A DNA stretch of 63,506 bases, filler included, from Catajapyx aquilonaris (lineage: Eukaryota): the NCBI GenBank assembly GCA_000934665.2. It is 3 parts of 3 records of this genome, joined end to end, with 100 filler letters (N's around TTAATTAATTAA, not from the genome) between each part and the next. Parts side by side here need not be neighbours in the genome. Positions count along the whole stretch, not along the records: positions 1 to 21,228 come from JYFJ02006145.1; 2 more parts are not named here. One strand, 5' to 3'. Positions 1,041 to 52,700 of this stretch are shown piece by piece. Under the pieces are notes generated by a model that worked only from the letters and a program-made list of their open reading frames with translations, had not been told where the DNA came from and did no database searches. Both the position numbers and the translations under genes were made by a program. Every line of letters begins with the position of its first letter. The stretch's first letter is position 1.

Positions 1041-8995
<7,955 letters not shown>

Positions 8996-9730
8996 CCTCG
9001 TTCTTTGACCCTCTGCTGCTGCCCTCCACTACAACTGACGGGCAGATTATTATGGTATGCAGCCTTTGCAGGACGGATACTGAACGGATCCTCGTTGTTG
9101 TCCCTGCACACTCTCTTATTCGTCCCTCTTTGGTCGACGAATAGTGCCAATAACTCACTTGGATGTCAGTCTAAAGGCCAGGCCCCCATGCTTCCCTCAA
9201 CTGACCAACACCAACCGACATCACATTCCATGTAATTTCTTTTTTTTCTTCTTCTTTTTCTTTTATCATTCCTTTCATAAGACCAGATGACTAATACCCA
9301 GGTACCAGCTGAAGCGAGCTGAATGCACCATTCCTTCGCTACCTTGAAACACCTTCTAACATAAACTAAACACCAACAGATACTTTATTAGTGCCTAACA
9401 ATAATAATTATTATAAATAAATTGCAAAAAGTGAATGGCGAGAGCACGGCTGGCGAGAGCAGGAGAAGGATTGGAACCAATATGGCTGCCAGGCGCCTCT
9501 CGATTCAAATCACTATTCAAACGTGATTCACAGTTTCAAACAAACACGGGAAATGCAGACTTCCGTCGCTTTTTTCTTCATAATAATAATTATTATGTAG
9601 CCTACCTATGTGGCGAGGAATGGGACATTTTCATGTTTCATGTTTTTTTTTAAAATATATATTTGCTGTGTTGGGAGACTTGGGACTAATACACGCGTGA
9701 TTGTGTATACGCCAACTATTTATGCAACCC

Positions 9731-10199
9731 AACCGAAGCAGTGGTAGCGGAGGGGATTTGGTATCCGGCTGCTAATCGGGAGGTCCTGGGTTCGATCCCC
9801 GGTGCCGGCAACTCTGACCGTGGTTTTCTGTGGTTTCCCACGGTCCCTCCAGGGAAATCCCGGAGTTGTTTCCGTAATAACAGGCCACAGCTGCTTCCTA
9901 GCTTCCCTTCCTATCCTTGTCCCATAGGGTACCTGAGGAGGTGCGGGGTCTGTGGGGAGTTTCAGATCCCGCACCTATAGGGGGTCATCTCTGGCGAACG
10001 GGCCCCGTGAGGGACTGCACACGACCCCCAACATATAGACAATGCACTGGCACCAGTGTCCCTCCCTCATATCCCTATCCTTCCCTTGCACCGGAGAGAA
10101 AAAGAAAAAGAAATTCAGAAAACTGATGGTGGTGTGCCACCCCCCAAAGAGGCCCTTGATGCGTAGCACGGGGTAAAATAAATAAAAAAAATTAAAAAA
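9731..10199 (+). mobile_element. tRNA-derived SINE, family A
   Basis: B box GGTTCGATCCC, central GGTTTTCTGTGGTTT...AGGCCACAGCTGCTTCCT block, A-rich tail, 13-bp TSD ATTTATGCAACCC (9718-9730 / 10200-10212). Confidence 0.92.
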
Positions 10200-11781
10200 A
10201 TTTATGCAACCCGTGGTTTCTCTGGCATACTTAATCCACGCATGAGTGATTGCAAAAACAACACTGGCAAACGAACTAGCGGAGCCGTCGTGATATGCCT
10301 ATTCAGTGCTTTAAAAAATAATAATAATAAATAGAAATACCGATGCGGTGTGACGGAATAAAGTTTTTTTCTTCGTCCTCCCGGTTTTATGCTAACAGAT
10401 CCATTGCTGTAATTACAGTGGACAAAAATGCATTCGCACCACAAAAACAAGCTGCAATATTATGTTTCAGTCTGAGAAAAAAGTCAACGGTCCCATTTTT
10501 CTTCTGCCTCCCATTCTTCCCTACTCTCCCATATACAGCCAAATTATACTTAGGCCTATACGGTTATATTGATAAATACAGTATACGACATCATGTCTTG
10601 TGGATACGAATATGATGGTTGGACGATCGGTTTTTGTTTTTCTTGGGCCTGTTTTGACGACAGCGTCTACCTTTTCTGGAAGTTCCGATAGACCTACTGC
10701 TAATCACACAATGGATAGAGTCACTAGAGTGGGGGTTTGAAATGTCGCCAAAAATGTAATGAATGAGTATTTGCAATAGTTGTGTGAATTAAGAGAAGAG
10801 AGAAAGGTCCCCCTTGCTTGTAGGCCTAATTAAGGTAAGGGCAGGGGTCAAAGGGATTGGTAGCTCCCTCGGAACTTACATAAAAGGTAGACTCTGTTGT
10901 CAAAACAGGAGGCCCGGGAAAAACTCTGGGATTCCCAGTTTAGAGTCAACTCCAATACAATACGTGTGTGGGCTACTTTCAAGTCACTCTTGCAACACCT
11001 AGTGTCATCGCCTGTCACGTATGTAATTGACGCACGCGTACTTCTTAGCATTATTCTGACTTTGCAAATCTTCATGCTGATTTAATAAAAGTCAGCGTAC
11101 TATCAATTAGTGAGTTCTGCTTATTCAGAAAAGCTACTGTAGCCTAAGTGCTAATTTTATTGTAGGCCTTGGTAAGTCAATGTGATATGATCACGATCAC
11201 GATCACAATAAACGTACACGGTTTCACTCTACCGTAACGTACTCCGTACTATAATTATAGGCTACACTGCAGCACTTGTTATCAAACAGTTTCTCAATTT
11301 CTGTTATAACCAACTGTGTGTCGTAATAATCATTACACTGTACGCCCGCATCTAACGCAGCAAAATAAAATAAAAAAATCGTATGCTACCGCCTTTTATT
11401 TAAAGCTGACTTCTGGCTACTCATTACAGCATTACTAATTTTGTGTGATTTTTTAAAATTTTCTGAATTTACCGAATCAGTGGTCAATCATATTATGTCC
11501 GAGACGACGTGACTTTCTACACGTGGACGATTTCCGAAATGAACCTTGGAAACGAAAGTAGATGGGAAGGGCTGGACAAAAAAAAAAAAGACACAATGAA
11601 GGATCCCCTTCCATTGGCCAACTCTTTCGAGAATCATTGCGAAAACGCCACCCCCGAAGAGAAAGTTCATGCCAGGCAAACATCCCGCCTGGCCTACACC
11701 CTCACATGGGAAGCAGTCCTACCGTAGCACTCGGACCTGTTCCAGCTCCCAGTCAGACGACACAACATTGCAAGAACCAAC

Positions 11782-14700
11782 ATGCGCCTCATTTTGGTGA
11801 GTTTTGAAATAATTGTATATTTCATAGCAGAATGCACAAGTACAGAGAACCACGCATCGCAACAAATACGATCTGGTCTTGCCTAGTTTGCATAATATTT
11901 CGGAGAGTTGTTATGACTTTCCCAGTTTCCCTTCTCATTATACTTGAAAGCCTGATTTTAGCGGCCGTAATTAGAGTGCAGGAAGTCCTACTTGTCTTGA
12001 CTCATTCTAATTTTTTTGGTGAAAACGACAGAAGAAAGATACGCCCCTATCAAGATACTGTAAGTGATAAGCCCATAGAAAAGCAACAACGATTTGTGGG
12101 AAAAAAAAAGTGAGCAAGTTCTTTGCAATAGTAATACATCTGACTATACAGCATAGTTGATGATGCTGTACCAATTCAATCATTGCTAATGCATCTTAAA
12201 AGCTTTTGTGACACCATTGTTAGGATATAATATGATTTTAGCGCAGTTCATCGTCAGGATAATTGACACCATTATTGTGTCCTGAACTTCGTAAAGATAT
12301 CGCCGAGAATCTTTTACATCAAAGTAATTCGAGTGGATAGTGAAGAAAACGTTCGTAGATTTGTTGGGGACGATGTGACCGACTTTCAGTGGTGGAGAGA
12401 GCAAGAGTCAAGATTTTGGCATTTCGCCTTTGAAATCTTCGGATGGCAGGTTACAACATAAGGATCCAATTCAATGTTTCAAACTTTGAATATTTATTCT
12501 TAATATTGAGAAAAAGTTTTCATTATGCATTGCTGAATATGTGCCAAGAGAAAGTGGAACTGTATTTATTACTTGAGAATTTCGCACACAATGCAGTTAT
12601 ATTATCAATTTCTTGGGATTGCGTCATTTTTAAACGCTGTATACAGTTCATTCCCATAGGCGATATTACTGGACGATGAAAGTTTCAGGTGAATAATTGC
12701 CCGAGTGGTTTCGATACGTGCACGTAACTGACTGCATGCAATTGGCGTGTGCCTCATGCTGTGGAATTATCATCAATTTATGAATTGCGCATTACTTTCG
12801 CTATAATGGCAAACATAGCACTTGCATATTTTGTTTTTCAATCTTCTTGGCAGTACGATGAGGAAAAGATATACCCTCAAGTGCTTGGGAAACATTTCCC
12901 ATTACTCATGTCAGTAGGTTTCACATTTCCCTGAAGTAGGAGCAGCTATGAATACAAATAAATTAATATACGTAGCTGTCGTTTCCTCTTGCTACATGCA
13001 GTATATCGGTGCCATTTTCTAATGCCCCGCCCGAAGCAAATATGATTATGCGTAAGTTCAACAACACTCCCCAACACATTTATACAAAATGCAAAGTAGC
13101 TCCAGTATACATCATTGATTTGCATTTTAAAATACAGGCAGCATGTCTCCTCCATCTACTGAGCTGGTCACCTAATTCGCTCCACTGGGCTGACACCCTC
13201 CCAGTGGGGTACCTCATATGGGGCACACCATTCCTCTACTCCACCCTCAACTACACCATCGATCCTGAGCAAGCCTACAGGGACCGGCCAAAGTACCAAG
13301 CAGACCACGGAAGGAGGGGGCAGAGACTCATCAACGAGATAGGAAAGGGTCAGAATGTAATGGTCAGGAACAATGGAACCAAGACTGTTTCATGGTGGAA
13401 TCAAGTGCAAGGACTTGGATTAGTGCCTGTGCGAAAGTGATTTATTGTGATGTGTGGTTCTCTCCATGTGGACAAATGGGGGTGTTCGCCGGTGTTGAGT
13501 AACAGTAGGAATGACAGTGCAATTAAAAGTGACTAACTCTGGAAAGTCTGGATATAAGAGTCTTCAAGGGACCACGGAAATCAGTATCCTATGAGCTATG
13601 ACTGAGGTTTCCTATTTGCTATTTCCAAATACACAGGCCATAATATTTATGGAAGTATGCTGGGACCTGTCTTTTGAGTTGGCTATAATGGAGGGTTGCA
13701 TATAGCCACGTCTCTTATATTAGGAATAAACTGTACATTACAATAAAGATCACCAAAACAATAGCAAAAAAGTAGCCTTGATGGATAATTATAATGTAAT
13801 ACAGAATAATATTTTTACAGGTCCCTCTAATTGTCTAATAGCTAGTTGCTTGAAGTTACTCTGTATGTTCTTATCAAGACAGTGAATGTAACTAACTTAT
13901 TGAATTTGCTGTGTCAAGGGATATAACACTAGGTTTTGTGTTCAATCATCTCTGTAGTAATACAAGAAGATACGATTTATTGCCTAACTTAACATCATTA
14001 ATGAAAAATATTTGTATGGATATTAGCAACATTTACTGAAGATACATGTTATTGACTACTGAATGTATGTGCCTGGAGTCTTCTCAGAATTATACTTAGT
14101 GGTTGACAAATGTGTGTCTGTGAAATCCCATGTTGGGCATTATCCTACTATCCTAAACGTGATTTTATCTTTGTTAGTGTCTGAAATATCTACATTACAG
14201 GAGTAAAGAAATTTTTTGAATCACATCGGATATAAATGACACCTAGCTCATATTAATACCTGTGTAATTTGGCATCAGCCATTGAAAGTGTTGTTGTTGT
14301 TGTCGTGGTTTTTTGCCATGTGACACCCTAATTTCTCAACTTCACATTGCAAGTACATTGTTCTAAATCAACCTAGTGCAGTACAGCTCCTACGAAAGTT
14401 ATAGAAATTTTACATTACAACAGGCTACCCTTTTCCAATCTCTTTCAGTTTGTTCTCATTCTAACAGCAACATGTGACCCCCAAACATCAGGCCAAATCA
14501 ACCCACCTGGCATCCTAACTGGAAATCAGCCACTAACCTTCAGGCAAGAGAATAGCAAAACAAACATAGACCAAAGCATTGAAAGAACACCATTTCGTTT
14601 GCCAGTATCACCATATCCATTCCAACAAAGGTAAGCCTGCTTACATACTGGAAAAACAAATGTGAATTCCACTTGCTGTTTGCTTCCAGGCCTAAATACA

Positions 14701-14810
14701 GGTATCCATATTATGACAAGGATGGCAAGGGGAAACTTCTCTATGGATATGGAGATGAGAACCAGCTGTTCGAATACAAGAACTTTGTTCCACTGGAGGG
14801 ATATTTTTGA
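11782..14810 (+). CDS. Predicted small secreted protein (about 169 aa if all exons join), family unassigned
   Basis: CAAC-ATG at 11782. Exons: 11782-11796 (MRLIL|gtgagt); 13138-13348 (AACLLHLLSW...YTIDPEQAYRDRPKYQADHGRRGQRLINEIGK; otherwise reads on to a stop at 13440); 14468-14630; 14690-14810 (RPKYRYPYYDKDGKGKLLYGYGDENQLFEYKNFVPLEGYF*). All phases are compatible; the 13348 donor (gtcaga) is weak. Confidence 0.65.
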
Positions 14811-15089
14811 ACAAACAGTTTGATACAATGTGAGCATATATTTTTAATGAGACTGTACATAAGGGTGGAGTGACTCTTCACATCATCCGACTGTGTTATT
14901 TTCCCTGTTGAATTGCATGTATCAAAGTATAAAAACAGGTGGTATAGACTCCTAAGCCACATTTTCCACTTTCTACAACCTCACATCATCATCTTAACAG
15001 ATGTTAAAAGTAACTGATTTTTAACTTAAATCCAACTGTAAGGCATAAAGAAAATAGTTATCTCACCTCAGGTTAATCTATTTCCATAA

Positions 15090-15486
15090 GGCCCTTGCCA
15101 CACTAGGGGGAATCTCCGCGAAAGAATTTCTGGCACGGTCTGCTCAAAAATTTCAAGCATATGGAAGTACACGGGATTCCATCGAGATGAGACACACTAC
15201 GGTTTTTCCGTCGTTCCATCGAACACCAGTGGAAGACAGGGGAAAAAATCCGCTCCATTATCCATCGGGGACAATAATCCCACTGCAATACATTGATTCC
15301 GCCGGGGGAATGCCACACTACTGACTGAAAAAGGGGGTTTGCTGGCATGGAAATCAGAGGGATTGGTAGCTGAAAAGGCCGCAAGGCGGCAGCAGGGGCG
15401 ACGGAAATTCAGTGTGACAAAACGTTGCAAAATCAAACCGCGCCAGAAATTCTGTCATGGAGATTCCGCCTAGTGTGGCCAGGCCC
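15090..15486. mobile_element. PIF/Harbinger-type MITE
   Basis: GGCCCTTGCCACACTAGG / CCTAGTGTGGCCAGGCCC TIRs, TAA TSD. Confidence 0.85.
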
Positions 15487-16737
15487 TAAGATTCGGGGGA
15501 AATAGCACCTTGGGGGCCATTCATCAAGTATGCCATAACATTTGCAAGTTTATTACTTCCCTCTACCTCCATCATGCATTGTCAGGGCAGACTGGCTATA
15601 CCCTCAATACGCAAGTTTCTTTTCAGGAATCCAGGAAGAACGTCTGAGATATAATTACGAACATACCATGTCCGCTAAAAGAGTAGCAACCATTCACCCT
15701 AGCCTCCCTGGCAGTACCTGTAACTACTTATCAATGACATCTTTAACTTCATTCACTATAAAATTATTTTGTAGCTACAATGTTCAGAGAAAAATTTGCT
15801 GTAATTTCAAACTGTCCACACCCCCCACTACATGGTCAGACAAGTTGGACTCAACACTCCCTCCTGCCACCTATGAGTATGATACACTTGATGGATGACA
15901 TGTTGCAAGGAAGACAAGTGTAACGCACGGCCTGCAATCCACTATAAAATGTCAATGGTTTCAACTATTTCAAGATCTTTAATCAACACCAACAGAGCCT
16001 TGAACATGGACTTGAACCAACTAGGGCACAGTCCAACTCTTCCACCAGGTATTGAATAGAAAAAACCATGCCTGTCAGGGGCAAGTCAAGTCTTCTAGAT
16101 TTCATAGAAGGATAGGCAGGTGGCAGCTCTTAATGCAGGTGCAATACTGCTGGGAGAAAACCACCCTGGAATCACTGCGCAAGAGGTACGTGAAAGTATA
16201 CAAAATTAATCAATGGCCAGCAAGCCTTCTGCCAGTGCCCAATTATGTGATCTGTGCAATATTGTTGCTTGCTTCGTCATGGATTCCATGCTGAACTTGC
16301 ACCGGGTAGATTCAAGGCCTTCGTCGTCTCATACTTCTGTCAACATGCAGTGGAAGTTCAACTCACTGCATTTAAGTGACTACAATCCCTTGAAATTTTA
16401 GAGTGAATAACAGGCTTACTGGTTGCATGTTGTCTACTTGAAAAACTCAACTTGTTCCTTCCTATATTGTTTATAATGGGCCAGCATATAATGAAATAAC
16501 CATCTATAGGTACAGATGAAGTGGAATGCCGCAATGTGAATAACTTTAATCAGTCTCTAACCTCACATTTGATTTATGAATAATGTTGGGCAACTTAGCA
16601 GTTTCCAAATTGTAGCCCAAGTTCCTACTTATGCAAAAGGATCAAAAATGCACTTTTAATGATTGCAAATATGACTATGAAAGAACAATTTTGGACAAAT
16701 GCTGAAATTATGAAAACTGGCAAAAAATTTCGAAACC

Positions 16738-19700
16738 CTACACATCGATGAATGGTGGTGACCAACCCACCCTGTCCCCACTTCCCCTGAAGCCATCACG
16801 GTAGAGTGTGACAAAGCCAGAGCACCTGGATAGGGGTCCTGACCACTTTAGGAATGAGCCACAACACTCATTGTTCATCAAGTAATGCTGCTGGTCTGTG
16901 TATCTGTCACCAATGGGATCTGAGTTGGCAGGTACCCAAGCAGAGTTGCCTCCAGGTTGAAAATTCTTCCCCAGTGTCACAGTCACCTGCTGAAGTAGCT
17001 CATCATCTGTGTCATCTTCACCACTGCTGGTAGAATCAGAGCATCCTAGGGTTGCCAGGAGAAGGCTTGTGGTCAACATCTGAGCTGGAATGGTGCTGCT
17101 ACCATTGTTGGGAGTCAGTGTGGAAGCTGGATCATCATGAACAGAAGAACCAGTTAGAAGAGAGTCAGGGGAGCAGATACGGGTCACTTGGGAAGCCAGA
17201 ACTGTGAAGCCCATCAGCGTCATCAGTGTTGCCACATGGCTCGCCATGCACACAACTGACACCTGCAAAAAATTAACAATTTTATGAGATGACTACACAC
17301 AGTCACAGAAACAAAAATACAATGAGTACCTGTGGCTGTCCTCACAACATGAATATATTAAATATTAATAAAAATATGATTTAAAAAAATCCAACACACA
17401 TTTTCATTGCAGTGCAGTACTGTATACTTAAGGCCTGTGCACACTAGAGTTGCTGGCTAAGCGCTGCTAGAGGCAACCAATCACAGCCCAGTTTGCTCCA
17501 CTCAGCTTTACGCCGGTATGCGCAGCTCATAATAGTTTTTTTTTTTCCCCCCCGCTCCGCTCACACTCTATACACGCAAAGGAGCCAATGGAGAGCTAAG
17601 ACGTCACCAAGGGATGGGGTTGATTGGTGTGCAGGGCCACTGTGGCTCCTCTGGTGAGCTATTCATTCACTCAGGCAGGCCAGGAGATTGACAACACGTT
17701 GTTGGGTATAGGAGAAGACACGCCTAACAGGTTCTGGGGGTTGGGAGATGTGAGGTGGCATGGGGTTGGAGAAAGGGTGTTGGGGGTGAGGGGTGGTGGC
17801 TTCCCACCCTGGTTTGCGACAGTGTCTTGAGTGTGAACACGACAATGAAACGGAGCGACAGTGACAACAAAATGAACGGGAGCGGCTCGTAGCCAGAAAC
17901 TCTAGTGTGCACGGGCCTTTACACTGTAAATTCAAGTAACTAAAACTTGCATGGTAGAAAAACAAATACTCTGCCTACAGTTCAACAATTCAAAATATCA
18001 GTTACCTGTCTGCACTCACTACAGCAGTGGTTTCCTTTTACCTTTTACCAACTCCAGCCCCCTAAACATTTTTCCATAAATCCCATTCCTCCCCTCCCCC
18101 AGCCCCTCCGACAAATGCTCCCTTTCCAGAAAACATACACTCTGAACAGCCGTAAAAATGGTGCAATTGACACAGACATTGCAAGTTGAGGCCAGGCTCA
18201 CGACCCCCTGCGACCCACTGGATGGAAACCACTGCACTAAGGAGATATGGCATCCTACTAGGCCTAGACTTCTCACCTTAGCAACATTTTCTAGTAACAA
18301 GTCCCAGCATTTGGCCCAGTCCACTAGCCTGGATAAGGAATGGAGATCAGCGTAAGTGAACCATCCCCTGTCCATTGCTGCCTTTCTCCAGGCTGTGTGA
18401 CCCTCAACCCAGCACAGCTTTGCCTCAAAGTCCTCCTGAGATGCCACCAAGCTCCAGTCCAGTGCCTCCAAAAAGTCTATTTCCAGCTGGTTCAGATCTT
18501 CCAGCTCTAAGTCTGAGGCCTTTGCCCACTGTCGGTTGCAGCAAAAGCTTTCGTCGTCCTCTTCAGTAAGGAACTTATGGGCTACCATCTGGAAATAACA
18601 AACAAGAATTTTATCAGGTTGCCATTATTTTGAGATGTAGGTTAAAATTCCACTTTCAATGCAATAAGGCATTCCAAATGTATCATGCTTTGTAATAAAT
18701 TGTTTTAAAATGAACCTGACCATTGACACAACAAACAACTTGGCAGGTGATGTCCGATCCAAAAAGTAGGAGTCACTGATCTTCAGCCGGTCCAAGTAGA
18801 GTAAGGCAAGAACAAAGGAGCTCGGAGAGATAGAACCAGGGCGGGAAACTTTGGCTGCATGGTCCACACTTAGCTGGTCCAAAGTGTCGCGGAGACCTGC
18901 TTTGGTGAAGATCTCCACAGCTATATCTAGATTCATAATTAAAGTGTGTTACTTATACTACAAAGTGCTGACTTAACCGCAAGCATCCCTAAATGTGATG
19001 TGGCCAAATAAAATGTAGTAGGGAGGCATGGGGGTCTGGTGGTTACACCCCTGGCCAGCCAAGCGGGATGCCGGGGTTCAAATCCCGTCCCCGTCACCTC
19101 AGCTTGGCCGGGTCTTTTTCCGCTTTTCACCCAACATGCCGGGGCAGAATTACACCCCCTACTCTGCCCAAGGCCAGGAGAAAAGGTCTGGTGTATATCA
19201 GAAAGTCAGAAACGACTATAATTACAGCGCCCTCCCCGGGGACCTCCTCTTCCCCCCTACAAGGGCTCCGCCCAATCACCAGGTATATTTTAAACAATAA
19301 CAATAACAATAACAATAACAATAATGATAACAATGCAGTAACAGCCAAAATTTTCGAAATTGAACTGGAGATCNCCCTAAATGTGATGTGGCCAAATAAA
19401 ATGCAGTAGGGAGGCATGGGGGTCTGGTGGTTACACCCCTGGCCAGCCAAGCGGGATGCCGGGGTTCAAATCCCGTCCCCGTCACCTCAGCTTGGCCGGG
19501 TCTTTTTCCGCTTTTCACCCAACATGCCGGGGCAGAATTACACCCCCTACTCTGCCCAAGGCCAGGAGAAAAGGTCTGGTGTATATCAGAAAGTCAGAAA
19601 CGACTATAATTACAGCGCCCTCCCCGGGGACCTCCTCTTCCCCCCTACAAGGGCTCCGCCCAATCACCAGGTATATTTTAAACAATAACAATAACAATAA

Positions 19701-20578
19701 CAATAACAATAATGATAACAATGCAGTAACAGCCAAAATTTTCGAAATTGAACTGGAGATCATAGTTCAGTAACAATATGTTTTTGAAAATCCAAGCCTC
19801 TTGCTGCATAAGTTGCATTTTGTTTGGTCATTACATAAATATCCAGTTTAATATCATTGTTAGTAATTCCCTCTTGGAAAGTACTTGAATAGCTCAGTTT
19901 TAAAGAAGTGAATTTGATGATATTTTTTTAAAAACTGCATTTCATCTATATATAAATCACCTCTGTCATTGAGGCAAACAAAATGTACAGTACCTGTCAT
20001 AGCTGTGCTGGGGCACTGAACGTTTCGCATGGGTCCATTTCCATAATACAAAGTCTTCTTGATTCGTTGTACCAGCTCTTCATGCTCCCGGAAAACCTGC
20101 AAGCAGTTAGACCACACATGAAACAAATCTCCTGTAATTTCATTGCATGTGACAAAATTGCACCTGTGTCACACTAGTCACATATCTGATTGCGACAAAT
20201 CTCCTGAAAATTAAACAGGCACTATTTTATTGCAACATTGACCCCTCTTTAACTCCCAAACGCTCTACTTTACTGGTAAAGGTGTGGCTTCCATGGCTTA
20301 AAATTTTGTAGTGTGTAGGTGCACCTTGTTTCTTTCACTCCACATGAGATTTGCAGCAGGGATATTTGTTTGACATGTGACCAGGGTATTACACTGCTAA
20401 TGTTACACATGAGACTGCAACAGCAAGTAATAGCATATTGCTCAAGATGCAAGATGACGAACCCTCATCTGGAGTCGTATAGACAAGCTGACCAAAATTG
20501 GCACCTTCTACCCATGTTCCCATGCACATTTACCTCGGGATCATCTTCCATGATGCTCAACGGGTCGAAAGGTATCAT
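16738..20578 (-). CDS. CNPPD1: Cyclin Pas1/PHO80 domain-containing protein 1, 5 coding exons, about 396 aa
   Basis: Exons 20578-20534, 20096-19994, 18926-18721, 18588-18277, 17262-16738 are phase-consistent. Motifs: RIKKTLYYG, ISPSSFVLALLYLDRL, LFVVSMMVAHKFL, LNQLEIDFLEALDWSL, RGWFTYADL, then a hydrophobic TM-like segment. The start codon is inferred. Confidence 0.92.
17431..17918. mobile_element. PIF/Harbinger-type MITE in a CNPPD1 intron
   Basis: AGGCCTGTGCACACTAGAGTT / AACTCTAGTGTGCACGGGCCT TIRs, TTA TSD. Confidence 0.85.
19021..19332 (+). mobile_element. tRNA-derived SINE, family C
   Basis: B box GGTTCAAATCC, (AACAAT)n tail; homologous to 28136-28443. Confidence 0.85.
19408..19720 (+). 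mobile_element. SINE family C, second copy (probably assembly duplication)
   Basis: Same as 19021-19332 including flanks, separated by a single N at 19374. Confidence 0.7.
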
Positions 20579-26225: not shown

Positions 26226-27778
26226 TGTCACCACAGTCCGCCCGTCACTATCCTTGGCGGAGTGGTCAGCGCCTGCCTCCACTAGGAACTTGACGATGTC
26301 TAGACAGCCGCCGTGGCAGCATAGTGCAGAGGGGTGTACAGGGCCGGACTGGCCCGGCCAGCTGACCGGCGATCGCCGGTGGGGCCAAAGGTGGGGCCAA
26401 AGTTTTCCGCAGGGGCCGGTAGATCGCGGTCGCCTGGTTTCGGTCAGTGGATGGGTTTGCCTGAACAATAATTATATTTAAAAAAAATCTTACCCTTGAT
26501 AGCCTTTCTGGCTTGTCGGGGGACATTCCCCCCACAGCAGGTTACATAATATATTACAGTATATGCACTCATAATTTGGTAAGGCTCAAAGGCTGATTGA
26601 ACATTTGAACTATCGGGAGGGGGGCCCGGCACCTTTCCCGTCTTGAAGGTGCAAAATGTTTGGGGTCACTGGTCAGAAAGGGACAAATATAACAGGTACC
26701 TTCAATTAGGAACCCTGACTTCATCTGGTCGCGACTCACGCTCACAGGGCAAGAAATAAGCATGCCAAGTCACTTCTTCGGCCACCAACAGGATAAGAAT
26801 TTCAGTGCATTTTCCGAGTCGTGCTCTCACAATAAATGACATACAGTATTGACAACCCTATGTACTGAACCCTTGAGGGCTCACCATCTGGGACCAGCCA
26901 AGAGCTGAAGAAGCCAGTACTGCATGCCCTTCTTGTGGAGGCACTACATGACTGGAGAACACGCAGCACGGTGAACGGTCAGTGACAGTGGCGGATTTGG
27001 GGGGACGGGGGCACGGGGGCACGTGCCCCCCCCCCCCCCCNNNNNNNNNNNNNNNNNNNNNNNNNNNNNNNNNNNNNNNNNNNNNNNNNNNNNNNNNNNN
27101 NNNNNNNNNNNNNNNNNNNNNNNNNNNNNNNNNNNNNNNNNNNNNNNNNNNNNNNNNNNNNNNNNNNNNNNNNNNNNNNNNNNNNNNNNNNNNNNNNNNN
27201 NNNNNNNNNNNNCCCGGAAATGTAATGCAACAATATAACTTTTCCTTGCTTTTATAATACTTAATACCGTACCAATTTTGGTACAATAATGTGAAGGTTA
27301 TGGGAACGGTAAATGACTGAGAAATTGGGGGCCAACACGATTTAACAGCCGGTGGGGCCAACCACTAGCCAGTCCGGCCCTGGGGGTGTAGTTGATGAGG
27401 CCAGGGTCGTTCAGGGTGGCCCCTTCTTTCAGGAGGAAGTCAACCACTGCCAATTGGTTTTCACGCGCCGCGTAGTGGTCCTCGTCCACGTCCTTGGCCT
27501 TGACCTCCGCCTCTCCGCGGATCAGGTGGCCGCAGGTGGAGGGATGCCCACTCATGGCGGCCAGGTGAAGGGTGGTGTCCTCCGACAGCCCTACCAGGTT
27601 GACCGGCCATCCTTCCCGCACCAGGTAACAGACCACCTCATCCTGCCCCCACATGGCCGCTCCAGCCGTTGGTGTCGTCCACCAGGCACACCAGTCCTCA
27701 GATCCCAGTGCGCTTCTCCACCATTCCTTGCACCTCGCTCAGTCTGCCATGTTCGCAGGCCATCAGAAAGGGCAGCCT
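26226..27778 (-). pseudogene. Ankyrin-repeat pseudogene exon split by a hAT element
   Basis: Acceptor at 27779-27780. Reads FLMACEHGRL...*...TTLHLAAMSGHPSTCGHLIRGEAEVKAKD...NYTP | LHYAA / HGGCLDIVKFLVEAGADHSAKDSDGRT, with an in-frame stop, deletions and a frameshift. Confidence 0.8.
26339..27382. mobile_element. hAT-type non-autonomous element (contains an N gap and a probable nested CAGTGGCGGA element end)
   Basis: CAGGGCCGGACTGGC / GCCAGTCCGGCCCTG TIRs, 8-bp TSD GGGGTGTA. Confidence 0.9.
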
Positions 27779-35830: not shown

Positions 35831-36552
35831 CTTCGAAAAAAAAACTCAAGGTCAAAATTTTACGATTGGAAGAGCATACGTGAATAGGGCTTCCAAAATA
35901 AATAAAAATCAATCTTTTTGGGTGGCCTAAATCTAAAAAAAAGTCGGAAATAATGTCAAGGTTTTGGAAAATAAACGCGGTCGTTCTGTACAGTCATGCA
36001 CAGTCTTTCCGAAATATAGTGAAACCAAGGGGGAAGGAGCAGTTTTGCGGGATGTGGTAAGAGAGGGGTGGGGGGNNNNNNNNNNNNNNNNNNNNNNNNN
36101 NNNNNNNNNNNNNNNNNNNNNNNNNNNNGGGGGGGGGGGGGGGGGGGGGGGAAAGGCTGTATATGTCACATATGTACCAATCACAGACCACCATTTCACC
36201 CACGTGACAACATGGAGTCCTCCATCTTGTCACGTTCAGAGTAGTGTGGATAGCATGTGGACTTTCTCCAGCATTACAGAGCTTTTAGGGGCACAAGCGA
36301 TCCAGGTAATCATGAGTCTTGTCTGGTATCTATACATACCTGATTGCACCATCCTTGTCAGATGAAAATTTAATTTGAACATAAAATGTACTGCTTTAAG
36401 CAATATTAGCATGTCTGCTTTCTTTCAGGGGCAATGTCTGCGTGTCTTATGATGTTATGATTTATTATCCATATAGCGTAAAACAATATATGGCTAGCAT
36501 TCAGTGATTCATTTCTGATTAAAGCAACAAAAATCTCAGTTCACTCTTAACT

Positions 36553-39092
36553 GTGTACCACTGCAATGACAGAATTTATTACTGTCCTGTCAATACATGC
36601 ACGGTGAAAAAGAGGACAGTCAGAAAACTTGTTCAGCATGTGGGTTTGCTTCATGGCCAAGAAAGTGGTTTTCATCTGGTGTGTGGCATTAATAACTGCA
36701 GTAGGCAATATTCAAAATTTCTCTCATACAAAAAACATGCATTGATTTTCCACAAGGAGGTGCCATTAGACAATAAGCAGCACATAGAGACACACAGGGG
36801 TTCAGCTTCCTCTTCACATCAGGGAGAGCAGCAGGCTAGCTTAGACAGTACACTGATTAACGGAAGAAGTATCAGGGCTATCGAACAGGATATTGAGGTT
36901 ACAGGCACAGGATTTCAGACTCATGATATGGAAATAGACCAGAAGTCGGTGTTTATTTCTAATCTAAGGGAGCATTTTGCCATGCTATTTTTAAGATTAA
37001 GAGAAAAGCAAGCGGTTCCCAAGTCTTTACAAACAAATTTAGTACCTGATGTGGCAGTCCTGCTTCAAACAATTAATGATGACTACACCAATATGATACG
37101 GCAACAGCTGGCCTGTGATAACGTTGAGATTTCTGAAGAACTTCAGAGTATCCTAGCAGATGATACATTTACTATGGCCTTGGAGCAAGTGAAGACAGAA
37201 TATAGGCTCAACAATTTTTGCAGGCGCCAGTTAAACTTGGTAGAACCCGTTCAGGTGTCACTTATGGGTGTGTATGGAAGCAAACACACATTTCAATACG
37301 TGCCCATCCTAGCCATTGTTCGGGTTCAGTTAAACGACCCGGACGTATTGGCTCAGGCACTGAGATATCAGAAAAAACATGACGAACATCTGACAGATTA
37401 TGGGGACGGGAGTATTTGCGAAAAACACAATCTATTTGCGCAAGACCCTACAGCCATCAAGATACACCTGTACACTGACGAATTCGAGGTTGCAAATCCT
37501 TTAGGAGCTAAGCGGGTGGTGCACAAAATTCTTGCAGTGTACTTTACAATAGGAAACCTTCACCGTAACCACCGCTCTCAGCTGAGGCAGATTCACCTGC
37601 TGCTTTTAGCAAAACACAAGATTTTGAAGTCCCTCACATATGCAGATGTTCTGAAGCCTCTTATTAAAGATGTGACATTGTGTTGGAACAGGGAGTGAAT
37701 TTTGACACTCCGCAGGGCCGAATGATTTTCCGTGGAGCCATTGCAACAGTTTCCACGGATAATTTGTCCGCTCATACTGTGTCAGGATTCAAACAGAGTT
37801 TTAGCAAGGGGCGGGCGTGTGTGCCGCGTGTGTATGGCCACATCAAAATCCATGCATCGCCCTTCTGAGCAAGAGTTCCTTCTCAGAACCCCCGAAGGTC
37901 ATGAAGCCCATGTGAGAGCTGTTGAGCTTCGACCTGCTGATTCCAAAATATATGGGGTCAAAGGCCGATGCCCATTGTCAGAATTGATGTACTTTGATAT
38001 TTTCACATGTTTCCCTCCAGACATTATGCACGATATAATGGAAGGGGTTATTCCTCTCGTAATCAAGTGCGTTTTACGTCATTTCATTGATGTTACAAAG
38101 TACTTGTCAAACGGGACGTAAATCAGGAAATTAAGAAGTTCAATGAAGGGAGAGCAAAGCATGACACACCAGTCTTAGAAATCTCGCCAGGGTCGTTGTT
38201 GGACAAGGGGAAACTGTTAGGATCTGCGAGTGACAAGTTCGCCTTTTTTCTGAGGTTGCCCTTTATCATTGGCCACTTTGTTCCAGAAAATAATAGCACC
38301 TGGAAAATGGTCTCCTTTCTGCGGGACATTTGCGACATCATATTTGCACCGACTGTCACAAAAGAGTGGGTTGCAGTTCTCAATTACCAAATACAGTCAT
38401 TCATCATGGAATTTACTAGACTCTTCCCAAATAAGATAATCCCCAAAATTCATTACATGGTACACTACCCAAGGATGATTTTAGCCTTCGGTCCACTGCG
38501 GCACGTTTGGTGCATGAGATACGAAGGGAAGCGCCGATATTTCAAAAGACTTGCTCACATTACGTGCAATATTAAAAACATATGCCGTACACTTGCAACT
38601 CGACACCAATACAGACAATGCTGGGAAAACAAAACTGGTGCAATAGATCAATCTGGACCGAAGGCTATGTCAGCACAGGTTAAAAGGAAAGTCGAATCTC
38701 TGCCTCTAGAAATGCAGGCAGAATTGAAAGTATGGTATAGCGATGTTGAGCCTGAGGAGTGTATTTTAAAAGTTAATGCTCTAGATGTAAATAATGTCAG
38801 CTACAGAGTAAACAGCTTTTATGTGGTAGCAACTATTCATGGGGAAGATATCCTAGTGTTTGCCAAAGTGTGCAATATCATGTGCTTCAGGGACTTATGG
38901 TTCATTTGCTGCCAAGTATACATCTCTCAGAAGTGGTCAGAGCACTTGCATGCATACAGAATAAAATCAGAATATGACTGGGCAATTTTTAGACCAGGAA
39001 GTGAACTTGACAGACACGAGCTGTTCCCCTGGTCTGATGACGTCGGTGAAAAGTGGATTTCTTTACCATATAGAGTGACATCCAGACCATGA
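36553..39092 (+). pseudogene. CMC (CACTA/EnSpm-like) DDE transposase with N-terminal C2H2 zinc fingers, intronless, three frameshifts
   Basis: Two C2H2 fingers; motifs IHLYTDEFEVANPLG, DNLSAH..GFKQSF..GRVCRVC, FPPDIMHDIMEG, PKIHYMVHYP, FGPL..VWCMRYEGKRRYFK. Spread over four frame segments with shifts at about 37680, 37812 and 38105. Confidence 0.88.
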
Positions 39093-43734: not shown

Positions 43735-46700
43735 CCAAATCTGTACCCAACTGTGGGTCTTCAGACTCCTGGTGAGGTGGTAGATGCCAACTTTGGGCAG
43801 CAGCCTTTTGTCTATGACATCGAGGACCTGATGAAAGAGCTGAGGGCAAGGATGAGGCTCACTATTGAACGATTCCCTGCACCTGAAAGGCCAGGGGAGT
43901 GGCAGAATGTGCTTTACAAGTGAGTGTAATCATTCTGGATCTATTGAAGCGACATATGTATAACTAATGAAATTTCAGAATGGTTTCCACTTACCTGGTG
44001 CATCATGGTTATTGTGCCACTGCTGAGGCCTTTGCACGCAGCACAGGACAGGTCATAGATGAGGAATTGGCCTCTATGAAGAACAGGCAGAGTAAGGAAA
44101 CTTGTAGTACAGACATTTGCTTTCTGGAGCTTGATTGTTCACTTCATTCATTTACTAGGAATCCAGAAGTTGGTCCTGTCTGGTCGCATGGGGGAAGCCA
44201 TAGAGACAACTCGAAGGCTCTATCCTGGACTTCTTGAGCGTAATGCAAACCTCCTGTTCCTCCTTAAGTGCCGGCAGTTTGTCGAGATGGTCAATGGAAG
44301 TGACTCAGAAGTCGCCAGGTCCAGCTCAATTTCTGGTTCTTCAGGTTGTGCCAGGTATAGTACTGGTCGAGTTCCATATTAACTGAGGAATGTGGCCACA
44401 TATTAAGCATTTATTTGTTTTGTACGAGGGGCGTTCATAAAGTTCGCGCCTTGTGGTTGAAGGAAAAGAAAGAAATGGTTCAAATTGCATGCATGTGTTA
44501 GTCTTTCTCTCTATTTTAATCCTGCAGAGTCACACATTTTTCCCAGCGATGTACGACCTGTCAGGCACCACCATTGTAGAAGTCGACACTCTGTGCTTGA
44601 AGAATGTTTTCAACCTCTGTTGTTGTGGTGGGGGGGCCTTGTGTTTCTCTCTTCACCTCAAAGACCTGTCCGGCTTGGGAGACCCTGCCAGTAGATGGAA
44701 CTGCCACCGGCATAGCTCTTCGGAGTCATGGGAGAAACAAAAGCTCCCCTGACCACGACAACAGAGATTGAAAATATTTTTCAAGCACAGACTGTCGACT
44801 TCTACAATGCCAATGGCTGACAGGTCATACATTGCTGGGAAAAATGTGTGACTCGGCAGCATTAAAATAGAGAGAAGGACTAACACGTGTGCAATTTGAA
44901 AAGTTTCACTCTGTTTCTTCAATCCGAAGGTGCTAACTTTATGAACTCCCCTCGTAATGTTGCAGTTTGAAAGTTTCTTTTATTGGATTGGATAGGCCTT
45001 CTTTGATATAATTAATCAATTTTCGGAAGGGTAATTTTTTACATACCGATACTATTGACATCTCAGAGATACGGGTGTATTTAAAATTTGCATTAGGGGA
45101 TATTCTACAATACCGTGAAGTTTGGGTCACCGATGGCAACGAAGCATGCCTGGGCAAACTCCAGAAATCTTGACACAGGCCTGTGGCTTAATTCCTGGCA
45201 GTCTCTTGCAAGCCTGGCCCCATCAGTCAGGCAGGCATGGGCTGCCTGACACGCCTGCCCTGTGAGGTGTGTCCACAATAATAGTTCCTTGCAAATGGAT
45301 TGTTTCAAATTTTAAACAGTAACTACTGAATAACTTTATGATTGTGAATGACTGATAGGATTTTGGTGAATGAGGCTAAGCCATAAGAGGTCAAGGTCAT
45401 CCCAATTTTCTCTGGATTTTCATGAGGACCGGAATTTTGTCGCCATCTGCAAAAATTTGTGGACCTACCCTTCGTCACCTTTGTAGTTCGAAAATTATGA
45501 TTGCTTTATAATGTGAGAAAAGGGAAAAGGCTACAGAAATTGCATAACGTTTTCAGAAGAAAACTTGTTTCATTGTTAAAATCACTAGCATGCCATAAAT
45601 GTCGCATGTCCAAGATAGATCATTATATACTCTATCAGAAGGCAGACAGGTTTTTAAGTATTTAAGCTGATGCCATTAACCCTTTCCCTGCCATGTCTGT
45701 GTATTACGGACACTTACTTATCATATATGAATGCGGTTTTCAGCATATTCACAAGCAAAACAGGGAGAACGTACCACAAAAATTACATGCTCGAGTGTTT
45801 TGTCTGACATTTTGATATGACGTCCTCCTCAGTTGGCCACATTGGAAGAAGTGTGCAATGATAGAGATTGTATGAAGCCTAGCTCAAGTCTGGGAATTTA
45901 GCAACTAATTAGATGGGTTTCTAAGCAGTATTTCGCATAGAATCGTTGTTTGATCCCGTATACTTCACCGCTACATTTTTTTCCCCGAGCCCTGGGAGTG
46001 TGTAGAAATTGGTATAGCTGTTGTGCCACACATGGCCTAGACTACGGGAGCAGCACAGTAGTTCGGGCGGGAGCAGCAATTCAATGCGGTTTGAATGATG
46101 AATGGGGCTAACACGTTGCGTTGGTGAGATATTGAATTTTTTTTAAATATGATTGTCATGCATGAGTTATTGATAAGTCATGTGGGGCGAATAGTGATGG
46201 CCAGAGAGTTAAACAGGAGAGCAATGCCACAAAGATGATTGGACAATATAGTCGTTAATCTGACCAAAGGACGAATTCCACATTTTTGCTCAACTAGGAT
46301 TATGGCCTCTGCCAGCACCATCTAGTGTTGGGTCACATTCTGCCAAAATGGCGAGCATAGTAATGTAACAAGTGGAGTCAGAGTTAGAACGGAAAATCAA
46401 AATGGTATCCTATGTATTTGCCTACCTAGCGGTTTGCGGGTTTCTTTTGACTCTCCTGTAAAATTATGCAAATATTGAATTCGTCCTTTTGTCAGATCAA
46501 CAATGATATATATGGAATGTTTTAAGATACTTATTTGTTGTGCTAGGGATACAGAGTGGAAGTTCAAGATTGGGAGTGTTGTTTTTCCCTAATTCCATGT
46601 GATTCCAGTTGAACCATTCATGAAACTGCTTCTTAATAACAACAGACATGAATGGCTCACTGACTAGCATTTTAAATGGATTTAGTGTAATACTATAACC

Positions 46701-49700
46701 TGTGGGTTGCAACATTTACCAAGTCTTGTTCCTTTCAGGAATGGAACTTCCTCCAAGTCAGCAGCTCAGCAGCTGGGTCAGTCGTCAGGAAGCTCCTCCA
46801 TCCAGACCTCAGTTATCCAGTCGACCAAAAATTACCACCAGTCCCATCACACCTCCCACTCATCCCACCCTTCCCATCACTCCTCCTCTTCCCACTCCTC
46901 TTCCTCCCACCACCACCACCACCATCACCACCACCACCACCATCATGGACGAAGTGGCAGTGGCAGCAGCAGTAGCAGCATTGCCAGCACCACCAGCAGT
47001 GGGAGTGGAAACAACAATAACAGCAACAGCACAAACAATAACAACAGCAGCAACAACAATTCGAGTGCACCTAGTGTGGAGGAAATGAACCTGGTGAACT
47101 CTGCCATGAATGGCGAGTCCAAAAGTGGGGTTGGGGAGGGGAGGATGGAAGAAGGAGGGAGTGGGGAGGGAAGTGGAAGTGTCAGTGGTGGCGGTGGAGC
47201 GGGAAGTGCAGGTGACAACAGCGGTGGGGGAGATGGACCTGACACTGGTGAAGAGAGGATGGACATGGAAACAGAAAGGAATGGATACAGTGCCCACACC
47301 AATGGATTTTCTGGTGGAAATGCTGGATATTCAAATGGCTTTCAAAATGGTGTTTCTCACATGGACGGGGAAGAGGAAGAAGAGGAGGAGGAGGATGTAG
47401 ATGATGACGAGGAAGAGGAGGAGGAGGAGGAAGATGATGATGATGAGGAGGATGGGCCCCACCAGGACGAGGAAATGGGTTAGTACTTGTGATGGGGGGG
47501 AAATTGGTAGTCTGAGATGTGGGTTGTGGTGAAGCATTGTGATATTCAATTATATATGCTAGAGGCATTACATTTTATGTTGGACAGTGTCTTGCAGCAT
47601 TTATGAAAGAAAATGTGTGTGAGGACATCGTTACCTGCATTATTGGCGTGTTAGTTACATAAAGCATTCCATAGACATGAAGCCTATTACTGGCTGCCAC
47701 TTAATAGCCTGTTAGTTTCACTTCCTGGCTCAGAGGATTACTCTCTTGGATTTCAAGGTTGAGTTCAACTGTCCTTGGCTAATGATGGGTCCTGAAGAAG
47801 TATTTTAAGTCATGCAGATTCATTAGGTAGCAAGTAATCATTGACTTGATACACATGATACTCTGATTTTTTAAAGTTTGCGCTTGTCACCAGTTGCTAC
47901 TGCAGCTATGGTGACTTGCTCATCAATGACAGCAAGGGTGACGTAAGTCCTAACTTGAAAAATATCTGTGTATAAATGGTAAGATTCAGAGAGGTGGCTT
48001 GCCACATCGTCCATTCTGAGCATAAAACTGAGTTACAATCATTCTGCTGCAAACTTGATACAATTCAGCTTTCCAATCCTCAAAATGTATTGACTTGACG
48101 TGATTGTGGCCTTAGAATTCAAAGTTGGAGTGACTATATTTTTGAACAATTGTTCTCAGTTACTATACTGACTGTGAGCTTTATGTAACCAAGGTCAATT
48201 CCCTGGACACATAGTTACCCAGGCAGTGCATTGTGAGGCCTATGGAGTGAGCCTGAAGATTAATAATCTCTAATACGAATGTATGTGCATGTGCAGGGAA
48301 ATTATTATAATATAACATCAGTGACCTGCACTCATTGTCAGTTGATTAATCAGATGGAATTGGAATGGTTTGCTTCCAGCAAGAAGCATTGGTATGAAAA
48401 GTGAGGAAGTTTACTCTAATGGGTCTGTCATACACACGCTGCGCGAGCTGAGTCCCACGTTTTCTCGTCGTGCGCTGCGCCCAAAACCTGTCAGACAGCA
48501 AGCGCACGCCACAAGAGGGGGTGGTTCGTGGTTGGGAATAATAAAGGGAACACAGGAATGGAACGGCAAGGAACGTTCCGCCGTGAAAAACCACCAGTCA
48601 CGCTGCTGTTCTGGGGGACCTCCTCCCGTGCTCTCTCTTTGGAATCCGTGTTCTGCCGAGTCCACACGTCCCAAATAATGGGTTTCTCCTCAATGCATGC
48701 AACCATGCCACAAACACCTCGTCCGATAATGTTGCAGCCGGGTTGCAGCCATCTTTTTTTCTGACCAAGGAACCGGCAGGAAGTGGAGCAGGCAGGCCGA
48801 GGGGTGGTCGCGGGGAGGGGTGGGCAACATGGTGCGAAAGGTCTCGACCAATCGTGGAGGCAGCGTAGGACGTAGCGAAGTACCAGAGCCTAGCTGCGTT
48901 CCCCCACTTTCCACCCCAATTTCTGGTTTCAAGTAGGCCTTCCGGGCTCAGCGCGGCGCCACGAGCACCAGTGTGACAGGGCCGGCGAAGGAAAGTTGGC
49001 TCGCTGGGGCCCGCGCAAGCGGCGCAGCGTGTGTATGACAGACCCATAAAGTAACAAGGAACAATGAGATGGGGACTCAACTGCTGTTATAGAGCGGGAT
49101 GTCCCATCTCTTTCTTTGTTATCGTATATGTTTCTCTCTCAGGCTGCTGAGCAATGTTCATGTCAATAAGGTGGTGCCCAGTTGTTGGATGCCATTTTTA
49201 CTTAGCAGGATAAGCATCAAAATAGGCAAAATTGGTATTGTTATAGAAATGTAAGCAATATTGAATGTTTTCACAGCACGCAGATCTTAAAATTACACAG
49301 CAAAACGATTCTGTTTTTCTTTATCAGGAGAGTAAGACTAATTGTGGGATGCAAGTTCATCTTGCTTATCATATGCTAAGGGAGAAATATTCAGCCCTTG
49401 TAATACCTTGAGTAAAACTTGCCATAGTCTGCATGACATTTTTGACTGCATGTAAAGATACTTGTCACTCACTACGCCAGCCAAACTCTTTGGAAATTCA
49501 AGCATCATGAAATTTGCAGCAGATTCTGCCCACCATTGCCCTCTCTATCCCTCAGTCTTCAGAGTCACAAGTGTCACACGTCATAATGTGGCAAATATAA
49601 GGAAATTATAGATGTTCATTACAGTAGTAGTTGCGTAATTTTTTGTGTACCGTATGCCACTGCTTGTCTTATACATGTGTAGGCTAAGTGGTACATTATT

Positions 49701-52700
49701 TTGTCGCATCTAGACTACTGAATGTGTACAAGTTGTTAGAGATGTATTTGGTGATGGGTACAATCCCTCATCTCATTCATAATACCATCTAGACACTGAA
49801 TTGGCTTCATGTGGGTTGCAAAGAGTGACCAGTATGAAAATATTGTTATAATTATTGTTCTAGTGTAAATAAGTAATATCATATGACTGTTCATGCATAG
49901 AGTGGCACACCCGTCAAAGGAGAGGTGACCACATTTGTGAAAATGTTCATCTGGTAGCTATACCGGCCTGCTAGTTGAGACAAATCAACTGTATTAAATA
50001 CCAGTCTGGGCACGTATCATGTGATATTCTGTCCTGTTGGTCACCCTTGTTTTATATTGACCTGCCACTCTGTGCTTGAATATATGGTACTGGGGTTGAA
50101 GGCTGCAGCTTATCGTCGCTGTGGAGTCAAAACCACGTAACTCGAATAATACTAATTTTTCAGGAGAGCAAAAAAACTAAATACAAAAATTACACTTGCA
50201 TTGAGATTTAATTGCTTCACCTGGCCATATCTTCGCTCCTATTGGGCAAAAAATTACGCCGTTTTGATGGCAGATGCAGCGCAAAATCCCTGATTTTCAG
50301 GATCAAAAACCCGAAATCGGCCGAAAAGCGAGTTACGCGGTTTTGACTCCACAGCGACGTTATGCTTCACAAGTAGATGTGTCAAGTTTGTAGAGTCATG
50401 GCATTGTCATCTGAAATGCATTCTGAGGTGTCAAACATTTCACTAATCAAGTTCATATTATTGTTACTGAGAAATTTGAATATTATAGGAATGGGTATGA
50501 TGGAAAGGATCTCTTGAAATGTGACAGTAAATTTTTGAAAATTTTAGGGTTTAGGGGCATTGTGCATGATTATCTACAGTAGCAGTTACATTTTAATAGC
50601 GGGCATATGTTTACATGTTGTATTGTATAGAGGGCCACAAAATCCTTTTGCATAAGGTTTTGCATTTATTTTACATGTTTTCAATTGTGTATTTTTATGC
50701 CTAGGGCTTCATATGACATATGCATAGGCCACTTGCTTTGTTACAGTAATCATTTATGGATAACCCAGGTTAGTTCAGACATCAGAGGTGTCATGAGGCA
50801 ACAGGTATACTGCATCAAGATGACGCTCCAGCACATTGTGCTGCACCAGTTAGAGAATGTATTGACCATCAATTCAGTGGATGTTGTGAGCCTTGAAGCC
50901 ACCTCCCGCAAATTGTCTCAAGAGTTCCGAACTCACGAAATCTGTAAAATTATTCTGTCACTATTTTCTGTACATTTCTCCATATTTTTTGAGACCTTTT
51001 GCATTTTAAAAAACCTATTTTTATTATAAATTTATAGAATTCAATTGTAGGCACAGAGCAGCCCCATGCAACTCCCACCCTTTCTATATGGTGACAGTAG
51101 GGATACTTACAGAGTCTCCGTCTTGGTACTGGTGTCACTCGCTCGGTGGATCAGGCTGCCAGGCAAATTCAGCGGACGCCTTTTGAACCAACCCATAGAG
51201 TCAATAGTACAGCACCCTCAGTCATATTCTGCAAAAAGAGCTAAAGAGCTAACATGGCTAGGATAGTCAATAAACTCGTATTATAGTCATATTCTGCAGA
51301 TTCTCTCACAGCCACATGGCAACCCGATCCCCCACAGTGAGCCAAAATTCTAGGCTGCCCAAGACTTCTATATTACACTATCGTATCAGGAGTTGCGTGG
51401 GAGTGGTACAGAGTTATGTCCTCCCCTCAAACAAGTTGTAGTATGGGGTAGAAAAATAAATAACCTAATTCCTTGAATGATGGACTGGTAGAGAACCATA
51501 CTCCATATTGAATTTCATACATTTAACACCTTATGGCCCTTTGGCATTTGTGGAGAGAAAATTGGTGAACTCCACCTTGTGACAGTTGACTTATTGGCAT
51601 GGAAGAGGATGTCCAGAAGAAGGGCAGGAAAATGTCAAATTTTTACAGAGAAGTTGTAATTAGTATGCAAAGGGACACTACATATTCTTTGCTTGAACCA
51701 TTTGTGTACTGGGTTAAGAAACTTACAAGCATGACTTGGTGTCGTGCTACTCACTATTGTAAAGGGACGGTTCTTTCACTAACTTTTGCCTTACTAGTGG
51801 TGAAGGTTTCATAGCACCACAGGATGCCATGTTCCAGAAGGTTTTTTGCGTCGAGTGCTCATTCATGAAAAAAGGAAGGTGGCGTACTACAAATGTTCTT
51901 TTAACACACATCTAACAAGCAAAAGCTATTGGAAACAGTCATTTACAGTCTATGCATAGTTTTTGTTACCATGAACCTGGAAGTGACACTTTCATGACAC
52001 ATCTTCCTTTTGCTCATGGTTGAATATGGGCTTTCTTTACCAGCATGATTGTGAAAGTGTGGTATGTCATCCATTAGTTGCCACAAAGCTCTCTAAGTGT
52101 ACCATGAACTTATATTTCAATTCAATTTGGTATTGGAGTGAAGTGGTGAATTACACTTGACTTATGGGGAGAAATGGTCCAAGTGGGCTGTGGAATTATT
52201 ATTTATCCTTCTGTAAGTTGACCATGGTCAAAAAAGTTGCAACTTTAGGCACTGCTTTGCAACCAGACTAGTATTGTATATTCCTCATAACTTCTAATGT
52301 CATCATTATGGGATGCAAATCTTTCTGAACTTCTAGCCATGTTTTAGACGTCATCATTTATGCTTTCCCCCCCCCCAAATAATTTGTGTAATTATGTGCA
52401 TTGGAGTGGGCATGCACTAATTTTTCAGCAATACTCAACATATAATGCACTACTGGTACACGACAGTGCAATTTTACCAAGCTCCCTGTATGTTGGTGAT
52501 AGAGTGCATTGCAGCAGAGTTTGTATTGCCATAATTTTGCTGTAGATCAGTATCTGTAAGTCTTTCTTGCACCCTTAATTTTAACCACGTGGCATTGCCC
52601 ATTCAATATCTGAACCCCCATGAACCTGTAATACCCAGGTATTTCTAACTCTTGTTCTACACCGTCACTAAACCTGTATTCAACACAGGAGTATGCAAAA

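Follow-up and report, generated by a model that had tools for sequence, protein, structure and literature searches.

Two separate small secreted proteins, rather than one, are very probably encoded between positions 11782 and 14810 of a 63,506-nt stretch of Catajapyx aquilonaris DNA (hereafter the window, i.e., the whole stretch that was analysed). By sequence comparison, the last exon is orthologous to Drosophila CG34115, an uncharacterised gene known to databases, and the middle exon probably represents another, unnamed family of about 98-aa secreted proteins, through a distant link. Each protein adds a member to a family that already exists but is uncharacterised and has no Pfam model. Judging from its sequence context, a 15-nt leader exon at 11782 is rather likely to be common to the two products, through the acceptors 13138 and 14449. 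The complete model, with a shared leader, two mRNAs switched by an RNA stem and two cuticle proteins, has in our opinion about an even chance of being correct.

The locus lies on the plus strand of contig G000:C3738. It is flanked upstream by the DM14 domains of CC2D1 (5819–7599) and on the other side by a cyclin-type domain (18019–18624, E 2e-5), both on the minus strand. These domains agree with the placement between CC2D1 and CNPPD1 given in the original prediction, the name CNPPD1 for the cyclin-domain gene being one that we presume, as the earlier reader did. The four exons then proposed are all bordered by GT–AG and join in frame into 169 aa, and reading through the second exon to 13440 does give a 105-aa product. 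With a generic scoring matrix, the canonical 59-nt intron (14631–14689) has the best donor among the 183 GT sites of 11700–14900 and the best acceptor among the 186 AG sites of 11800–14900, and the donor of the leader, at 11797, ranks third of the 183. Two exons (14688–14807 and 13138–13437) are coding beyond chance. The single 169-aa product did not hold, since its two halves correspond to two families, found as separate proteins in wasps and ants; the secreted character of the products, as judged from hydropathy, and the existence of alternative forms including one of 105 aa are supported. As for the earlier statement that no family could be assigned, it stands for Pfam, in which none of the four window pieces or of seven full-length relatives has a family, but not for the last exon, a CG34115 orthologue, nor for the middle exon, which probably falls with a hymenopteran family.

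The homologue search suggested with the original prediction was productive for the last exon, the family found being uncharacterised. The translation of 14688–14807 matches 139 of 179 candidates at E≤0.001, together with 68 cluster representatives. The named matches of CG34115 type come from a range of winged insects and from several crustaceans, namely a copepod, a barnacle, a porcelain crab and ostracods; searches of the ESM Atlas returned unnamed clusters or nothing. When the fly protein (Q0E906, 77 aa) is used as query, this exon is the sole match in the genome (E 3e-12), which indicates a single copy. Insect members consist of a signal peptide and a short core, the 46-aa core showing a median identity of 89% to fly in the 98 of 120 insect sequences for which it could be measured. 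Tyrosine makes up 20% of the core. In Catajapyx, the predicted second exon (14449–14630) would provide the remainder of the signal peptide, recognised by hydropathy alone, and a variable linker, and the last exon (14690–14810) a 40-aa Tyr/Gly-rich conserved core and the stop codon, for a total of 105 aa with the leader.

Signal peptide and 40-aa Tyr/Gly core are common to this protein, Drosophila CG34115 and the insect and crustacean orthologues (62–77% identity for the top matches), and the intron before the core and the phase-0 intron in the signal peptide occupy the same places. Of the 25 loci listed, 12 likewise have the phase-2 intron that interrupts the Arg codon preceding the core, and in all 13 insect loci where the signal-peptide exon was found, which represent few lineages, this exon starts at a phase-0 acceptor. 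The C-terminal end of the Catajapyx protein is of crustacean type, whereas the Arg-codon intron is insect-like. Compared with Drosophila CG34115, the Catajapyx protein has about 45 additional linker residues, and the gene apparently lacks a leader exon of its own. Five metagenome loci (L032–L036) match part of the core and suggest another intron position in some crustaceans. Past the stop codon of the CG34115-like protein, neither AATAAA nor ATTAAA occurs in 14811–16000; the TATAAA at 14928 may be a variant signal.

The family of the middle exon was reached indirectly. This exon (13138–13440), the predicted terminal coding exon of an upstream protein of 105 aa with the leader, is distinguished by its GC content (0.58–0.59 over 13140–13349, versus about 0.3–0.4 in introns). 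A direct homology search with 13138–13437, restricted to lengths of 55–175, gave zero candidates. The route was a fused wasp model, P0106, whose N-terminal half aligns to the exon with a pairwise E of 1e-7. Within lengths of 89–286, this half retrieves 15 proteins, every named one from Hymenoptera; 14 of them are free-standing, 89–122 aa long and equipped with their own signal peptide. Wasps, bees and ants are the groups in which the family is known so far. Alignment of exon 13138–13440 to this second family by hhalign gives a probability of 92.8 (E 4e-7). The profile score of 13138–13437 is 22.2 bits, against 6.8 for the best of 1000 shuffles, and in a comparison of 10,770 six-frame segments only the exons of the ant orthologue itself rank above the window exon (E 1.7e-4). 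With the wasp protein P0182 as query against the genome, exon 13138–13440 is the sole match (E 0.077). A match on contig C946, obtained with an ant paralogue at E 0.06, was judged to be due to chance; since E values of about 0.06–0.077 are also reached by such a match, position and motif carry the family assignment.

The motif shared with the hymenopteran family (e.g., Vespula LOC122627698 and Polistes LOC107071764) comprises invariant Pro, Pro, Arg, Tyr, Gly, Gly, Ile and Gly positions, and the hymenopteran genes are likewise placed upstream of the CG34115 orthologue. In contrast, identity is just 19–30%, the C-terminal tail is longer in Catajapyx, and the Catajapyx core has no internal intron whereas the ant second-family gene has one. 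A butterfly model, P0174, contains a piece of the second family, and no member was found in termite-gut or crustacean-type contigs, where the flanks may be too short.

The same motif bears on the idea, put forward in the original prediction, of a prohormone cleaved and amidated at a G-RR signal. A neuropeptide precursor of this kind would agree with a signal-peptide-like start and one G-R-R string; this string aligns to an internal motif of the second family, however, and the two residues that follow the Gly are dibasic in none of 38 relatives, so that the prohormone idea fails. G-[KR][KR] is also absent from the mature part of all 104 insect CG34115-type proteins, and we regard this reading as very improbable.

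The two families are neighbours in Hymenoptera. In the ant, contig L029 has the two genes on one strand and in the order seen in Catajapyx, the second-family gene preceding the CG34115 orthologue by about 1 kb; each gene carries a phase-0 coding leader of its own, and the gene downstream is unrelated to the window flanks. No other protein of the window matched any of the loci compared, and the pair has thus been kept together while the flanks differ. Consecutive locus numbers are found for the pair in Polistes dominula, Vespa crabro, Acromyrmex, Temnothorax americanus and Mischocyttarus. In Trachymyrmex cornetzi, T. zeteki and Atta colombica, the pair is annotated as isoforms X1/X2 of one locus, and such merging of two proteins usually reflects overlapping transcripts. 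A diverged second-family paralogue was also noticed in L029 (1–378, minus strand), head to head with the family gene; no counterpart was found in the Catajapyx genome.

Both modules occur in one protein in 4 of 255 proteins. A fifth candidate, P0100, which matched a regular expression, was discarded for want of support from the profile. These four proteins could be read in favour of a single fused 169-aa product in Catajapyx, either as the main form or as a minor third isoform; the fused model is in frame and its acceptor, 14468, ranks third of 186. Yet the four look like gene-prediction fusions: their names are of the gene-prediction type (hypothetical, DBV15_, jg), an additional, internal, hydrophobic signal-like stretch is present in three, and in one the order of the modules is reversed. 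The junction 13348/14468 of the original prediction is itself unfavourable. Its possible donor (13349–13354) is weak (score 1.25, rank 10 of 183), lies inside the conserved motif, where its use would delete the second Gly of a G-x-G motif that all 38 relatives retain, and is probably not the main site. On the acceptor side, 14468 sits 19 nt past another AG, at 14449, which scores as well or better and should capture the splice. A fused product is accordingly considered quite improbable, and fused gene models at the CG34115 locus would represent a recurring annotation error.

With two products preferred, the question becomes how the second one starts. Acceptor 14449 ranks second of 186, is in phase 0 with an open frame, and adds six mostly hydrophobic residues, which leads us to revise the start of this exon from 14468. 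Since exon 14449–14630 has no upstream in-frame Met, it needs a leader. The proposed one (11782–11796), five codons that would begin the signal peptide of both products, is followed by a phase-0 donor at 11797; it is the top-scoring ATG-to-GT phase-0 mini-exon in 9400–13100 and lies in single-copy DNA. Joined to it, the CG34115-like protein reaches a hydrophobic peak of 3.23, close to the insect family median of 3.34 (5th percentile 2.58, n=105).

The alternative is that of two ordinary neighbour genes, as in ants, the downstream one having its own weak-donor leader within 13441–14448 and the stem described below being due to chance or unrelated to splicing. The separate leaders of ant L029 both have modest donors (−1.48 and 1.37 on the same matrix), and since true ant leaders score so low, an own leader could be hidden in Catajapyx. 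Candidates do exist at 14110, 13598 and 13511, and a TATAAA at 14231 lies upstream of exon 14449. Against this, the 28 phase-0 candidates of 13441–14409 all score at most 0.38, compared with 4.39 for the 11782 leader, the one at 14110 scoring −3.12, and no ATG-to-donor exon past the 14231 TATAAA figures among the top 14 phase-0 candidates listed. Three of five alternative leaders give peaks of 1.85–1.94, under the 5th percentile; those at 14110 and 13598 give acceptable values (3.03 and 2.93, respectively), and two alternative leaders fall in a dispersed repeat. Separate leaders appear a rather unlikely arrangement, the shared leader being preferred.

A candidate poly(A) signal for the upstream product, ATTAAA at 13522–13527, stands in single-copy DNA, where its use would end the upstream mRNA. 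A dispersed repeat begins directly after it (13544–13745), with at least 39 other copies among the best 40 matches scored, and two AATAAA (13725 and 13742) are found at the end of this repeat.

A repeat scan revealed complementary arms at 11844–11867 and 13440–13463, which bracket the upstream exon. The core of this predicted stem (11844–11862 with 13445–13463) has 19 uninterrupted pairs and a stacking energy of −36.1 kcal/mol. Its two G-U pairs form on the coding strand alone, the best helix of the other strand being −27.6. The 5' arm starts 47 nt past the leader donor; the 3' arm begins at the final base of the upstream stop codon and ends 59 nt before the ATTAAA. The arm pattern, with one mismatch allowed, occurs at exactly these 2 places in the 286 Mb genome, which rules out that the arms represent a repeat family.

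None of 472 dinucleotide shuffles matched the stem, but this test alone overstates it, and real windows are a fairer control. Strong inverted repeats are common in the Catajapyx genome: at an arm distance of at least 200 nt, a helix as strong as the stem or stronger is present in 39 of 92 real windows, most of the top matches listed at this distance being near-perfect short-range inverted repeats. At distances of at least 1000 nt, the proportion is 3 of 92, so a distant helix of this strength can be found elsewhere, as expected if the two genes simply had separate leaders. What argues against this last reading is that the arms are unique and that one is placed at the leader donor, the other at the upstream stop, with a positional probability of about 0.003, a post hoc figure. 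The arms also have competing local structure (mean unpaired probability 0.39 and 0.36), and no stem of like strength was found in the ant locus, a single and distant one (best −25.0). Provided that the leader is shared, our analysis somewhat favours a functional stem.

This type of mechanism is already known from Nmnat. In the fly gene, a terminal exon has its near acceptor flanked by complementary boxes, which must pair for the far acceptor to be used (PMC2724269). The Catajapyx stem resembles that of Nmnat intron 4 in having its boxes around the near acceptor, the second one before a poly(A) signal. Two differences are worth stressing: according to the same study, conservation of the Nmnat boxes extends over 12 flies and their role was tested by mutating them, whereas the Catajapyx stem is a predicted one; and Nmnat swaps the C-termini of one enzyme, while the choice here would be between two unrelated proteins sharing five codons. 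Looped-out exons are also reported to be included less often in human genes (PMC8052449).

The proposed mechanism can then be formulated as follows. One promoter and one five-codon leader would give rise to two mutually exclusive mRNAs. Splicing of the leader to the near acceptor, 13138, would yield a terminal exon, with cleavage past the 13522 signal and translation of the 105-aa upstream protein. If the stem forms, acceptor 13138 and its exon would be looped out and the leader would join 14449, leading to the 105-aa CG34115-like protein. Both proteins would be secreted and would most likely enter the outer cuticle during its deposition, where the Tyr-rich β-hairpin core would pack or be cross-linked. 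If leader and stem are real, they would offer a compact example of two unrelated secreted proteins between which an RNA structure decides.

The cuticle part of the model is suggested by fly expression data, as covered by 12 of the 16 supplements of PMC4883753. From 42 to 96 h, CG34115 in the pupal wing goes through 3.4, 480, 185, 41, 65, 9.5 and 5.6 FPKM. The rise from 42 to 52 h is 142-fold (PMC4883753); the authors put epicuticle deposition at 52 h, and only 70 genes change more than 100-fold in either direction in this step. CG15649, assembled in the same dataset as a locus adjacent to CG34115 and placed in the same expression cluster, shows a parallel series (1.0, 759, 218, 73, 82, 3.0 and 0.8 FPKM; PMC4883753). 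It is a lead as the candidate fly member of the second family.

Both Catajapyx products recall cuticular families (CPR, CPCFC) and the crustacean larval factor in being small, secreted and aromatic/Gly-rich, with expression of the fly orthologue during cuticle deposition. Sequence signatures are less eloquent. Neither the R&R chitin-binding consensus (Pfam Chitin_bind_4) nor another cuticle Pfam was found in the four window pieces and seven relatives, and the label 'CPR type cuticle protein' carried by the Cimex orthologue in UniRef has no Pfam backing. The mature cores of both proteins are cysteine-free, and Cys occurs in the mature stretch of 2 of 104 insect CG34115-type proteins; the cysteine motifs of CPCFC, Clf and FCP3 are absent from either mature core. 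The crustacean relative P0168 contains Gly/Tyr/His-rich stretches, which we take to be like those of cuticular proteins. The crustacean larval factor differs by its ten Cys (PMC6391395), the Catajapyx cores having none. At the structural level, no relative of solved structure was found by sequence, the AlphaFold models are of low confidence (pLDDT 62.6, with three strands, and 52.5), and Foldseek gave no match to them at E≤0.001. From this analysis, a cuticle component appears the likelier nature of the CG34115-like protein, with some reserve.

Other observations would be explained if the CG34115-like protein were not a building block of the cuticle but a signalling ligand or matrix factor secreted by muscle or epidermis. 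The conservation of the 46-aa core over the 98 insect sequences (median 89%) and its single copy in Catajapyx would suit a ligand. Expression of CG34115 in the muscle of embryos and larvae has been reported (PMC10671637, PMC4440730) and fits a secreted signal equally; the gene changes 16.5-fold in lamin-mutant larval muscle (PMC4440730), and embryonic lethality is reported for a start-codon allele (PMC10671637). This lethality is disputed, because the P insertion used to assign it is viable over a deficiency (PMC4978919). The absence of processing sites and of Cys, the sharp and high wing-epidermis pulse at the epicuticle stage (PMC4883753) and the composition of P0168 speak against a ligand, which we consider rather unlikely, the cuticle role remaining our preference.

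No molecular function of CG34115 is given by any of the four papers naming the gene in the literature searched; PMC6634974 and PMC8728971 give gene placement. Neither CG34115 nor CG15649 is named in the bee integument supplements. Four motif strings and six identifiers are absent from the full-text literature searched, supplements excepted, and no description of the gene pairing, shared leader or stem was found in the literature searched by gene name, motif, identifier and topic.

To our knowledge, the proteins of the epicuticle layer are poorly known. A conserved pair with a sharp pulse at the epicuticle stage would provide testable candidates for this layer, for which fly alleles exist. More speculatively, an old hexapod gene pair might encode two unrelated epicuticle proteins, forming one transcription unit in the Catajapyx lineage, where a five-codon leader could serve either protein and the stem would set their ratio; the pair would have stayed linked and co-expressed into winged insects (CG34115 and CG15649 in the fly), with own leaders there. 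This broader scenario is only tentatively proposed.

Several other features were noted in the window. A MITE, presumably PIF/Harbinger-like, occupies 15089–15487, with 54-nt inverted ends, TAA on both sides and at least 39 further long matches among the best 40 scored. A second MITE-like element, with 50-nt inverted ends, lies upstream of the leader (10648–10909). A stretch of about 390 nt is repeated almost identically on each side of a single N at 19374 (18939–19773) and may be an assembly duplication. Further along, an ankyrin-repeat coding piece is found on the minus strand (27298–27738), and long transposase-like frames without a Pfam match extend over 36523–39092. CTLH-domain exons span 43971–55395, in what we take to be a RanBP9/10-like gene, and the sequence near 59850 presumably has a likeness to a G-protein alpha first exon.
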